Positions 28,605 through 31,046 of a DNA stretch of 64,000 nucleotides are shown here, piece after piece. The translations under genes were made by a program, and so were the position numbers. The DNA comes from Escherichia coli 042 (GTDB taxonomy: Bacteria > Pseudomonadota > Gammaproteobacteria > Enterobacterales > Enterobacteriaceae): NCBI RefSeq assembly GCF_000027125.1, contig NC_017626.1. One strand, given 5' to 3'. The notes beneath the pieces are model-generated. The model had not been told where the DNA came from and made no database searches. It saw nothing but the letters and a program-made list of their open reading frames with translations. Each line of letters starts with the position of its first letter. Within the stretch, counting starts at the first letter, position 1.

Positions 28605-31046
28605 ATGAGCACTGATAAAGAAGAATTTGCACTATATTGCGAAGCAAAAAATGACAAAGTAAGAAAACGCCTGGGAATTAAAGGTGGTTTTTACTGGACT
28701 ACAGCAAAAAAATTATCTGTTGCAATCTCCCGCTGCATTACCGCAATGGATGACAACGATTATGATGAAGACGACTTTAAAAAACCCGTCCGCGTCAATT
28801 TGCCCGTTGTTGACGACCTTCCGCCAGAAGGCGTGTTTGATACTGAATTCTGCAACCGCTATGAAAAAGGCGGGAAAGATGGCATCACAATGACATTTAT
28901 CGGCCCTTCCCCCTCTGTTCAGGACAAACCAGCCAGCACTGACAATACCAACATCAACGGCGAAGACATGACTGAGATTGAGGAGAGCATGCTTCTGCCT
29001 GTCTCCGGTCAGGAACTGCCCATTCGTTGGCTTGCTCAACACGGCAGCGAAAAACCAGTAACGCACGTTTCACGCGACGAACTCCAGGCATTACACATTG
29101 CACGGGCTGAAGAACTACCGGCTGTTACTGCCCTGGCTATTTCGCATAAAACCAGTCTGCTCGACTCGCTGGAGATTCGCGACCTCCACAAACTGGTTCG
29201 TGACACTGACAAAGTTTTCCCTAATCCTGGTAATTCAGACCTGGGACTAATAACTGCTTTTTTCGAAGCATACCTGGACGCTGACTACACTGATCGGGGT
29301 CTGCTGACAAAAGAGTGGATGAAAGGAAATCGTGTTTCACGCATCACCCGCACGGCTTCCGGTGCTAATGCTGGCGGTGGGAACAAAACCGATCGCAATC
29401 CGAATTTAGTACACACCCTCGACACACTGGATGTGGAGATTGCAGCAGCCACACTTCCGATGGATTTTAATATTTATGAAATTCCGGGCAGCATTTATCG
29501 TCGCGCAAAAGAAGTAGTCCTGAACAAAGAAAGTCCGTTCAAAGAATGGTCCGCAGCACTTCGTGCAACCCCGGGTATTCTGGACTATTCCCGCGCCGCT
29601 ATTTTTGCACTTATCCGAAGCGCACACCCTGAATTTTATCACTACCCGGGACGCCTTCAGGGGTATATCAACGCCTATTTGACGGAAACTGATCACGAGA
29701 ACCCCAGCAAGGAAACTCTCACAGCTGCCCGGCATACGCCGGAAAAAGATATCCTGGAAGAAATTAACCGCGAGGTGGTTACTGAGCGTGAAACAGAAGA
29801 AGAAAAACCACAACCATCTGACGCAATGGCAGGTGAACAGGCAACAACTGAAACAATGGAACCGGATACAACTGAACATGGCCAGAACGCGCAGTCGCTG
29901 GATGCTCAGTCGCAGGTGAGTTCCGCTAACCAAGTAAAAGTCACCGCTGACGAAGTAAACAAAATTATGCAGGCAGCCAATATCAGCCAGCCTGACGCCG
30001 ATAAGTTACTTGCTGTATCGCGTGGTGAATTTGTTGAGGGGATTAGCGACCCTAATGATCCGAAATGGGTCAAGGGGATCCAGACTCGCGATTCTGTGAA
30101 CCAGAACCAGCATGAATCGGAACGGAACGACCAAAAAGCGGAACAAAACAGCCCAAATGCGTTACAAAACGAGCCAGAAACGAAACAATCCGAACCAGTA
30201 GCGCAACAGGAACCGGAAAAAGTCTGCACCGCCTGCGGTCAGAGCGGTGGCGGCAACTGCCCTGATTGTGGCGCGGTGATGGGCGACGCAACATACCAGG
30301 AAACATTCGATGAAGAGAATCAGGTTGAAGTTCAGGAAAATGATCCGGAGGAAATGGAAGGCGCTGAACATCCACACAAGGAGAACCCTGGCGGCAATCA
30401 GCATCACGCCAGCGATAATAAAACTGGCGAGACGGCAGATCGCTCAATTAAGGTGAACGGTCATCACGAAATCACATCCACCAGCAGGACGTGTGACCAT
30501 CTAATGATCGACCTTGAAACCATGGGAAAAAATCCTGATGCCCCGATCATCTCAATAGGTGCAATATTTTTCGATCCGCAAACCGGAGATATGGGACCGG
30601 AATTTAGTAAGACTATCGATCTGGAAACTGCTGGCGGAGTCATTGATCGGGACACCATTAAATGGTGGCTTAAGCAATCACGCGAAGCGCAATCTGCCAT
30701 TATGACCGATGAAATCCCGTTAGATGATGCACTGTTACAATTGCGGGAATTTATCGACGAAAACTCCGGTGAATTTTTTGTTCAGGTCTGGGGAAATGGA
30801 GCCAACTTCGACAACACGATTTTGCGCCGTTCATACGAACGGCAGGGGATCCCCTGCCCGTGGCGTTACTACAACGATCGCGATGTACGCACAATCGTTG
30901 AGCTGGGGAAAGCCATAGACTTCGATGCCAGAACGGCTATTCCATTCGAAGGTGAGCGCCATAATGCACTTGATGACGCTCGTTACCAGGCAAAATACGT
31001 TTCAGCTATCTGGCAAAAACTGATCCCGAGTCAGGCTGATTTTTAA
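28605..31046 (+). CDS. prophage exonuclease with C-terminal DnaQ-like 3'-5' exonuclease domain
   Basis: 813 aa; acidic/Gln-rich middle with Cys4 zinc ribbon ([16 protein letters not shown]); C-terminal DEDDh-like motifs (MIDLETMG..., HNALDDARY). Confidence 0.65.

Follow-up and report, generated by a model that had tools for sequence, protein, structure and literature searches.

A RecE-like N-terminal region joined to a predicted DEDDh exonuclease domain in an early-left prophage protein of Escherichia coli 042

The window that we analysed, a stretch of 64,000 nucleotides from Escherichia coli 042 (contig NC_017626.1), takes in part (21.5 kb) of a lambdoid prophage integrated at serU. The genes cro, cII and O are divergent from the cI-like repressor gene and lie on the - strand, while the early-left operon has the order DUF1391, ydfB, ydfC, DicF, dicB, DUF1482, exo, xis and int (Table 1). 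In agreement with the early-left position assigned to it in the original prediction, the exonuclease gene (exo) is the distal gene of this operon before xis and int, which occupy the slot held in Rac by the run of genes beginning recT-lar. The terminase gene (TerL) is interrupted by a satellite, so that the prophage is defective and the present-day function of exo in E. coli 042 is uncertain. A Mom-like DNA-modification gene was found in the same prophage.

Table 1. Features of the exonuclease locus, with positions in the window
Feature	Position	Strand	Remarks
LexA-family (S24) cI-like repressor	26103..26741	+	Head of leftward early region
ydfA-like DUF1391, ydfB, ydfC	27034..27567	+	Early-left small genes 5' of exonuclease gene
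DicF sRNA	27909..27960	+	76.7 bits (gathering score 48)
dicB	28135-28323	+	Directly 5' of DUF1482/ydfD-like gene
DUF1482/ydfD-like gene	28320-28511	+	Directly 5' of exonuclease gene
Exonuclease gene (exo)	28605..31046	+	813 aa, ATG start; ORF list; PGAP name 'exonuclease' / '3'-5' exonuclease' (WP_000102138.1)
N1, small alpha/beta domain	28605..28904	+	aa 1-100; pLDDT 86-98
RecE-homologous span	28782..30440	+	aa 60-612 vs K-12 RecE aa 52-588, 59% identity; pairwise alignment
N2, helical domain	28947..29354	+	aa 115-250; dN/dS 0.13; overlaps Exonuc_VIII (aa 57-189)
N3, helical domain	29382..29804	+	aa 260-400; dN/dS 0.14
Conserved short helical motif	29946..30074	+	aa 448-490; dN/dS 0.03-0.08; alignment, AF2
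Cys4 motif, putative zinc knuckle	30225..30269	+	C541-x2-C544-x7-C552-x2-C555
Junction linker	30441..30491	+	aa 613-629
Chi octamer CCACCAGC	30478-30485	+	Inside junction linker
Predicted DEDDh 3'-5' exonuclease domain	30492..31043	+	aa 630-813; dN/dS 0.11-0.15; Pfam, AF2, alignment
Excisionase-like DUF4224 gene (xis)	31105-31308	+	Directly 3' of exonuclease gene
Tyrosine integrase (int)	31308-32333	+	
tRNA-Ser (serU) attachment site	32389..32475	-	Prophage boundary

The 813-aa open reading frame claimed for this locus was found to be real and intact: a GAGG lies 10 nt 5' of its start codon, and no frameshift splits it. Since full-length copies are present in 1,244 complete E. coli genomes and dN/dS is 0.03-0.15 in all folded parts (0.17-0.67 in linkers), it is not a chance reading frame. 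A separate DEDDh product from an internal translation start was rejected, because M634, the internal start considered, is not preceded by a Shine-Dalgarno sequence at usable spacing. An own promoter was rejected as well, no sigma-70-like sequence being present on the + strand of the 93-bp gap upstream of the gene in a crude consensus scan whose total match count equalled chance expectation.

The C-terminal part had been predicted to carry a DnaQ-like, DEDDh-type catalytic domain, distinct from both RecE and lambda exonuclease, and the Pfam, PDB and Foldseek searches agreed with both statements. Specifically, PF16473 (Rv2179c-like) matched aa 632-803 over model positions 2-177 of 177 (E 7.1e-68; 228.2 bits, well above the gathering score of 27 bits), RNase_T matched the same residues weakly, and neither DUF3799 in Pfam nor a RecE nuclease in the PDB search was matched by the 813-aa protein. 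The AF2 model of aa 600-813 (pLDDT 89, pTM 0.83) has an RNase H-like alpha/beta fold, for which the best Foldseek match in the PDB was T4 DexA (8KEL; E 3.9e-12, TM 0.66), ahead of RNase T, Orn and REXO2. All five catalytic residues, D636, E638, D736, H786 and D791, are present and align to DexA D7, E9, D119, H186 and D191, respectively; D636 and H786 were invariant in 74 homologs, and the other three were kept in at least 90%. Judged by these alignments, the protein has a DEDDh domain with a complete two-metal active site, and a 3'-5' polarity is predicted from the fold.

For the N-terminal region, originally described as unusual and mainly acidic and of low complexity, the results were different. 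AF2 gave three confident folded domains (aa 1-100, 115-250 and 260-400; pLDDT 84-98), with predicted disorder within the region confined to aa 405-445, 492-537 and 557-620, and this structure together with the homology to RecE (59% identity, 942 bits) refutes the description. In NCBIfam, the RecE equivalog model (NF007259; 877 positions) was matched at positions 1-602 by residues 1-615, with a score of 942.3 bits that falls below the equivalog cutoff of 1269 bits and with the C-terminal part of the model unmatched; in addition, Pfam Exonuc_VIII (PF06630) matched aa 57-189 (E 3.6e-36). Placement firmly in the RecE family, which had been named as a result that would speak against the original reading, was thus obtained for the non-catalytic two-thirds of the protein but not for the catalytic third. 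Within the region, the initial ~56 aa of N1 are unlike Rac RecE, N2 is near-identical to it across most of its length, N3 is common to the shorter Tritos/PPompW-type alleles and to YdfE-type alleles, and the GISDPxDPKW motif of the conserved helical stretch at aa 448-490 recurs in 29 of the 65 sequences aligned (query plus 64 homologs).

Pairwise alignment with K-12 RecE consisted of near-identical blocks and ended at residue 612 of our protein and residue 588 of RecE, with only noise beyond residue 612. E588 is the start of the minimal active RecE nuclease (PMC11257833), and homology to RecE therefore halts at the N-terminal boundary of that nuclease; the N-terminal domain of RecE itself has been called 'of unknown function' (PMC11611040). 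The Cys4 zinc ribbon of the original prediction could be upheld only in that the four cysteines are present: the match to Pfam DZR (E 0.096) is below cutoff and AF2 confidence around the motif is low (pLDDT 45-62), leaving the ribbon unproven. Nor is the motif a peculiarity of this N-terminus, as RecE carries it too, in a stretch that reads CNACGQTGGDNCPDCG in K-12 RecE by pairwise alignment. The motif is inherited from the Rac-RecE lineage and occurs in only 11 of the 65 aligned sequences. Rac RecE (exonuclease VIII; P15032, NF007259) thus resembles the 813-aa protein in its early-left operon slot, its N-terminal ~610 aa, the Cys4 motif and the acidic linkers, whereas its PD-(D/E)XK 5'-3' nuclease (RecE 588-866, Pfam DUF3799) is replaced here by a DEDDh domain of predicted opposite polarity, and recT, ralR and rcbA, which lie downstream of RecE in Rac, are absent. 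Read from the sequence, the 813-aa protein is evidently a domain-swapped RecE paralogue, composed of a RecE-type N-terminal region and a DEDDh domain.

This architecture is not rare in E. coli. The DEDDh segment was found in 4,047 of 5,426 complete E. coli genomes (75%), with ~8,100 E. coli copies in total and up to 7 copies of the domain per genome, and the Rac-type RecE nuclease segment in 32%. In a set of representatives clustered at 50% identity, 17 combine the RecE N-region with DEDDh and 17 combine it with the RecE nuclease. We found no third type of nuclease attached to this region; ten long homologs were without either nuclease domain and had no other Pfam domain, and these could be fragments or correspond to the 'RecE-2' proteins described by Zheng et al. 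The gene is a prophage chimera that is intact, under selection and common in E. coli.

One may ask whether such a chimera is a decaying fusion, formed when a deletion brought a shortened recE up against a downstream exonuclease gene, and now no more than a remnant without function in a cryptic prophage. The prophage is indeed defective through the satellite in TerL, certain copies elsewhere are split or interrupted by an IS, and the K-12 ydfE allele is cut by IS2. However, every folded segment of both halves is under strong purifying selection, the junction lies exactly at a domain boundary, and the fusion is kept with intact catalytic residues in the 17 separate clusters, down to 43% identity, and intact copies are also present in inducible or isolated phages. 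Decay is largely refuted by these data, and we regard it as very improbable. The K-12 Qin pseudogene ydfE, which occupies the same locus after dicB-ydfD, was rejected as a truncated copy of the 813-aa allele, since BLASTP detected no similarity. It is instead the first 256 aa, unrelated to N1-N2 here and truncated in K-12 by IS2, of another allele (823 aa, P0123 type, also in O157:H7). This allele has the same N3-N4-DEDDh part at its end and so shares just its C-terminal half with the 813-aa allele.

The original prediction also saw no RecT or Bet partner next to the gene, and this was confirmed: the genes downstream are xis and int, and PGAP transfer and PHROG scans revealed no RecT, Bet, Erf or Sak4 gene in the prophage part of the window. 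No anti-RecBCD gene was found either. The annealase by which a SynExo is recognised (RecT, Bet, Erf, Sak or Sak4, whether next to the exonuclease gene or elsewhere in its module) is thus missing. In the three loci with the RecE nuclease (K-12 Rac, P0151 and P0146), the nuclease gene was followed by recT in every case, whereas none of ten DEDDh-type loci had an adjacent annealase, and in all ten xis/int lay directly 3' of the gene. These ten loci (the window, P0130, two in P0133, P0141, P0126, three more E. coli alleles and phage vB_EcoS-813R8) represent several int/att types and extend down to 43% identity. Together with the RecE nuclease, recT has been lost. Since a 3'-5' exonuclease leaves 5' tails and annealases load on 3' tails, as in lambda Red and RecET, the protein would provide no annealase-ready tails, and, given the absence of annealase and anti-RecBCD genes, it is probably not part of a two-component SynExo recombinase.

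It could still be the exonuclease of a two-component system if the annealase were supplied in trans, by the RecT, Bet or Erf of another prophage, or by an unrecognised small protein of the operon, for which the upstream genes DUF1391, ydfB, ydfC and DUF1482 are possible candidates. E. coli genomes hold up to 7 domain copies plus other prophages, and stand-alone homologs of the domain adjoin Erf/SSB (mEp235) or an HK620-type protein (mEp460). We nevertheless consider such an arrangement quite unlikely, given the 5' rather than 3' tails expected of a 3'-5' exonuclease and the ten DEDDh loci without an adjacent annealase; furthermore, recT is always adjacent in the RecE-nuclease loci, suggesting that exonuclease and annealase are specifically paired and that the pairing has been lost here.

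The closest domain-level relatives of the C-terminal part are the stand-alone DnaQ-like nucleases of mEp235, mEp460 and epsilon34 (PMC12315714), which share ~58-60% identity over aa 631-811 and are encoded in the same early-left region. Unlike the domain studied here, these are separate proteins of 180-190 aa, the size class of phage exonucleases to which the domain corresponds, and their genes lie by Erf/Sak4-type annealases, SSB and Abc2, none of which is present here; in mEp235, for example, the Rec module has the arrangement Erf-SSB-exo-Abc2. DnaQ-like nucleases have been listed as members of Rec modules, and Tritos is the nuclease-only class of these lambdoid modules (PMC12315714, Table 1). 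The nuclease gene of Tritos and of PPompW (in the latter an ECO26_1771-like 'putative exonuclease') shares 96-97% DNA identity with the segment encoding aa 444-813, the value for Tritos being 97%, although its protein, of ~530 aa, lacks N1-N2. As in the Tritos class, which has a nuclease without a single-strand annealing protein (SAP) or anti-RecBCD, the early-left operon here contains a nuclease and no SAP, SSB or anti-RecBCD gene.

Chi sites are likewise not depleted here. We counted 11 in the 21.5-kb prophage part (8 on one strand and 3 on the other), where the density of K-12 would predict ~4.7 (P ~0.009). The enrichment is modest, ~2.3-fold in the prophage part and ~1.7-fold in vB_EcoS-813R8, and weaker than the published 21/6-7/2 of the Tritos class; sites are found on both strands.

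We consider it somewhat probable that the protein acts in lytic growth as an annealase-independent 3'-5' exonuclease on DNA ends, perhaps feeding recombination by host RecBCD and Chi. With no promoter of its own detected and a distal position in the repressor-controlled DicF-dicB-ydfD operon, it is expected to be made from this operon only once the prophage is induced or a cell is infected. The DEDDh domain would then strip nucleotides off DNA 3' ends, and the RecE N-terminal region would serve as a portable module, the same that is joined in RecE to a nuclease of opposite polarity. In the mechanism that we favour, the enzyme would trim single-stranded 3' tails of intermediates in phage replication or packaging, and the resulting blunt or 5'-tailed ends would be open to host RecBCD, so that recombination-dependent growth might proceed through host RecBCD-Chi-RecA. 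We infer the polarity of the nuclease, DNA as its substrate and the connection with RecBCD. The mechanism agrees with the published Tritos class of lambdoid phages, described as nuclease-only and Chi-rich, with no SAP and no anti-RecBCD. On the other hand, 3'-5' exonucleases generally work against recombination instead of promoting it, as noted by Zheng et al. (PMC12315714), which counts against this mechanism.

An RNA substrate, which would also count against it, is compatible with the Pfam family, named after the exoribonuclease Rv2179c. The protein could then be an RNA-directed 3' exoribonuclease acting, for example, on the long pL transcript, DicF precursors or host RNAs. The founder of PF16473, Mycobacterium tuberculosis Rv2179c, a stand-alone bacterial 3' exoribonuclease, was not matched in a direct PDB sequence search with the 813-aa protein. 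The best Pfam model is nevertheless entitled '3'-5' exoribonuclease Rv2179c-like domain', RNase T, oligoribonuclease and REXO2 follow DexA among the structural neighbours, and the DicF sRNA is encoded upstream in the same operon. However, DexA, the closest solved relative, and its homologue EcD are DNases, the close homologs sit in DNA recombination modules, and the scaffold on which the domain takes the place of a DNA exonuclease is otherwise known only from an enzyme that acts on DNA; we therefore think an RNA-directed role improbable.

The likeness to DexA raises the possibility of a defence or superinfection-exclusion function of the DexA/EcD ('HREX') type, in which incoming modified (e.g. 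5hmC) T-even-like DNA would be degraded and the lysogen shielded. T4 DexA (PDB 8KEL/8KEN) has the same PF16473 domain and DEDDh pentad, and it is the nearest characterised relative and the best match in sequence and structure among solved proteins. EcD, an E. coli homologue of DexA, degraded T4 DNA, and its expression from a plasmid protected cells against T4 (PMC12153337). Moreover, the exonuclease gene adjoins int, a region where accessory genes gather (PMC12315714); the gene is retained in many cryptic prophages, with the domain in 75% of genomes, and the Mom-like gene shares the prophage. Several differences argue against this function. No promoter of its own was found for the exonuclease gene, which is co-transcribed with toxic dicB/ydfD under the repressor, in an operon of a temperate phage, and which should for this reason be silent in the lysogen. 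Identity to DexA is ~20-30%, as compared with ~60% to the lambdoid Rec-module exonucleases, a DexA insertion of ~14 residues is missing, and the DEDDh domain is fused here to a 630-residue N-terminal region. A conserved Trp (W152) and an acidic residue (D169) of DexA, both proposed to recognise 5hmC, were not kept: when 38 sequences were aligned with MAFFT, they corresponded to Y756 and A770. The D169 loop is aligned with uncertainty, and among 14 T4-like DexA homologs 10 have Gly in place of D169. HREX proteins have also been characterised by loss of the tetramer contact DexA S87/D90, with A78 in EcD (PMC12153337); in our alignment, where identity is low, S87 corresponds to Pro and D90 to Asp, and the fused N-region may set the oligomeric state anyway. 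The termini of EcD (MIDTET…, …TIPETYD) differ from those of the 813-aa protein and were not found among 387 homologs retrieved, and a primer-based blastn search of E. coli genomes for the EcD locus (HAK9828821.1) was negative, possibly because the cloned gene was synthetic. Finally, neither the 813-aa protein nor its small neighbours matched a PADLOC family (database from 2023). We therefore judge a defence role unlikely, and a weaker alternative to the lytic DNA-end exonuclease.

RecE/RecT is a workhorse of recombineering, and the N-terminus of RecE (600 residues) enhances linear-linear recombination. In the proteins described here, this module has been kept under purifying selection on an unrelated nuclease of predicted opposite polarity, with recT gone whenever this is so, providing a natural experiment on what the N-terminal module contributes and on how an exonuclease is tied to its annealase. 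The DEDDh form is commoner than canonical RecE in complete E. coli genomes (75% vs 32%), and its possible roles include host-RecBCD-dependent recombination, lytic degradation of DNA or RNA, and DexA/EcD-like exclusion of phages with modified DNA. More speculatively, and with considerable doubt on our part, the RecE N-region might be an autonomous, portable module that targets DNA ends or host factors and has been swapped between nucleases of opposite polarity, the DEDDh version preparing phage ends for RecBCD-Chi in place of the phage's own annealase and anti-RecBCD; if true, most E. coli genomes would encode a new host-dependent recombination strategy. Settling the role of the DEDDh form would bear on the annotation of thousands of prophage genes and may yield a tool for recombineering or phage resistance.

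The open reading frame of the original prediction was borne out exactly, as an 813-aa gene with an ATG start and a GAGG 10 nt upstream. In Pfam searches, aa 57-189 matched Exonuc_VIII (PF06630; E = 3.6e-36) and aa 632-803 the Rv2179c-like 3'-5' exoribonuclease domain (PF16473; E = 7.1e-68); the latter residues also gave a weak RNase_T hit. The NCBIfam RecE equivalog matched aa 1-615 at model positions 1-602 of 877, scoring 942 bits; with the final third of the model unmatched, this falls below the cutoff of 1269. In a direct alignment, aa 60-612 shared 59% identity with residues 52-588 of K-12 RecE, including long near-identical blocks, and no similarity was found beyond this point; the RecE nuclease has thus been swapped out at its domain boundary. 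Where RecE homology has ended and the DEDDh domain has yet to start, a 17-residue linker contains a Chi octamer, CCACCAGC, kept in three of the four other alleles checked, which may be a coincidence or a trace of the chimera's origin. The Cys4 motif (C541, C544, C552 and C555) of the original prediction is present but not peculiar to this protein, being nearly identical in RecE in the direct alignment. When the query was aligned with 64 diverse homologs of the RecE N-region, 11 of the 65 sequences carried the motif, which is an inherited, optional feature; the region, a putative zinc binder, matched Pfam DZR only at E = 0.096 and was modelled by AF2 with pLDDT 45-62.

The DEDDh residues are D636, E638, D736, H786 and D791, of which D636 and H786 were invariant and the others at least 90% conserved in a 74-sequence alignment. 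They align with D7, E9, D119, H186 and D191 of T4 DexA, whereas the DexA paper gives D7, E12, D119, H186 and D191 as catalytic; in our alignment the motif-I glutamate is E9. Only DexA (8KEL/8KEN, E = 6e-8) was detectable in a sequence search of solved structures, and DexA was also the best structural match (E = 3.9e-12) of an AF2 model of aa 600-813 (pLDDT 89), followed by RNase T, oligoribonuclease and REXO2. Judged from sequence alone, an RNA substrate is a less likely alternative. A defence role of the DexA/EcD type (PMC12153337) is possible, but the repressed operon context, the low identity to DexA and the absence of its proposed 5hmC-recognition residues (W152 and D169 align with Y756 and A770) argue against it.

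Against three other E. coli alleles, dN/dS was 0.09-0.14 in the folded N-terminal domains N1 to N3, 0.03-0.08 in the helical motif at aa 448-490 and 0.11-0.15 in the DEDDh domain, with the linkers mostly relaxed (0.17-0.67). The alleles are mosaics; for example, the intact 823-aa allele of O157:H7 (2736-5207 of locus L016) has the C-terminal DEDDh half in common but is unrelated over its first ~440 aa. The pseudogene ydfE of the K-12 Qin prophage (6079-6999 of locus L004), truncated by IS2, corresponds to the first 256 aa of the 823-aa allele and is 99% identical to homologs P0123 and P0135. These three lines, dN/dS, mosaic alleles and ydfE as an alternative N-terminus, indicate that the gene is functional, and the selection and conservation data contradict a decaying fusion.

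Of 5,426 complete E. coli genomes, 1,244 have a full-length match, 4,047 contain the DEDDh-encoding 555 bp (8,108 places, up to seven per genome) and 1,730 contain the Rac-type RecE nuclease segment. The gene is named 'exonuclease' or '3'-5' exonuclease' by PGAP and 'exodeoxyribonuclease VIII' in phage records. Of the 1.84 billion cluster representatives searched, 17 join the RecE N-region to DEDDh, 17 join it to the RecE nuclease and 23 carry it with neither, some of the 23 being fragments; no other Pfam domain was found in ten of these that were tested. Eight long homologs of the RecE N-region, of 626-814 aa, lack both nucleases (P0124, P0128, P0137, P0177, P0196, P0200, P0219 and P0260), and their C-terminal parts match no other Pfam domain. 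Such proteins may correspond to 'RecE-2', which Zheng et al. 2025 (PMC12315714) mention as lacking a nuclease, or may bear an unrecognised catalytic domain.

The gene is carried by a lambdoid prophage integrated at tRNA-Ser, with mtfA, tRNA-Asn and the yersiniabactin island as neighbours. From 20314 rightwards the window has 99.9% identity to E. coli GTEN_97, which allowed the PGAP annotation of that record to be transferred.

Features of the prophage and its surroundings (window positions)
Feature	Position	Strand	Remarks
Satellite-like element resembling a capsid-forming PICI	~1-10,700		in the prophage's large terminase gene
hokD-type toxin gene	20402-20614	-	early-right/nin region
176-aa ORF	22030-22557	-	PHROG 1384 'Mom-like DNA modification protein', E = 2.9e-42; PGAP XF1762 family
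Ren-like exclusion protein	23915-24334	-	early-right/nin region; PHROG 142, PGAP DUF977
LexA-family cI-like repressor		+	early-left operon, first; PGAP annotation transferred
DUF1391 (ydfA-like), ydfB, ydfC		+	early-left operon
DicF sRNA, full length	27909-27960	+	between ydfC and dicB; Rfam RF00039, 76.7 bits
dicB, DUF1482 (ydfD-like)		+	early-left operon
Exonuclease gene	28605-31046	+	early-left operon
Chi octamer	30478-30485	+	in linker
DUF4224 excisionase-like gene, then integrase		+	early-left operon, last
serU (tRNA-Ser)	32389-32475		integration site
High-Pathogenicity Island	33467-64000		yersiniabactin; at tRNA-Asn; int, ybtS, ybtX, ybtQ, ybtP, ybtA, irp2, irp1

With full-length DicF in place, the dicBF-type operon is intact, and its repressor is SOS-cleavable rather than DicA. 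No promoter-like site was found upstream of the exonuclease gene on the same strand, and the operon is common to DicF, dicB and ydfD, so that the exonuclease should be expressed only after the repressor is removed. The Mom-like ORF may serve self-modification of phage DNA, which could matter for any nuclease discriminating modified DNA.

The satellite, annotated from the related record L015 (locus coordinate minus ~497), encodes portal, HK97-type protease, major capsid protein, PerC, SSB, DUF927 primase, DUF4222, Icd-like protein, BRO-N, two HTH regulators and a tyrosine integrase, and is very Chi-rich (12 sites in 10.9 kb). The L015 terminase gene is annotated as truncated directly beside this integrase, which makes a packaging defect of the host prophage probable. 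A gap of ~1 kb, holding only mtfA, separates the prophage from the High-Pathogenicity Island on its right, and GC content rises from ~0.46 to ~0.60.

RecE-nuclease types (K-12 Rac, P0151 and P0146) are followed immediately by recT, and DEDDh types directly by xis/int: in the window, in P0130, P0133 (two loci), P0141 and P0126 (four divergent clusters, 40-46% identity over matched stretches), in three more E. coli alleles with differing integrases, att sites and repressors, and in phage vB_EcoS-813R8. Nuclease domain and annealase therefore co-vary, and synteny across E. coli typically ends at the last base of the exonuclease gene. Neither annotation nor searches revealed an annealase, SSB or anti-RecBCD gene elsewhere in the stretch of prophage inside the window. 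The DEDDh form does not belong to the two-component recombinases.

Chi sites number ~1,008 in the 4.64 Mb of K-12. At this density, ~4.7 would be expected in the 21.5 kb of prophage inside the window, where we found 11, eight on one strand (P ~0.009), a modest enrichment that is supportive only. The closest domain-level relatives are stand-alone exonucleases of lambdoid recombination modules (~60% identity); such homologs, of 180-190 aa, start at the equivalent of aa 630. In mEp235 the relative lies in the order Erf-SSB-exonuclease-Abc2, whereas in mEp460 it comes after an HK620-like protein. Zheng et al. 2025 (PMC12315714) described DnaQ-like 3'-5' nucleases as Rec-module members, while noting that nucleases of this kind usually inhibit recombination, and defined a 'Tritos' class having a nuclease, no SAP, no anti-RecBCD and many Chi sites; the Tritos nuclease gene shares 97% DNA identity with the segment encoding aa 444-813. 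The inferred role is that of a 3'-5' exonuclease working on DNA ends in lytic development, with the RecE N-region as a putative transferable module; most specifically, it would trim 3' tails so that host RecBCD loads and Chi-dependent recombination serves phage growth, which fits the module content and the published Tritos class.

Databases or the 2025 literature already cover both domains, the gene annotation, the nuclease-only class and the occurrence of DnaQ-like nucleases in lambdoid Rec modules. We found no description of the fusion as such, of the exact domain-boundary swap or of the strict covariation with recT loss. The main value of this very common yet uncharacterised gene lies in the access that it offers to the unexplained RecE N-terminus.
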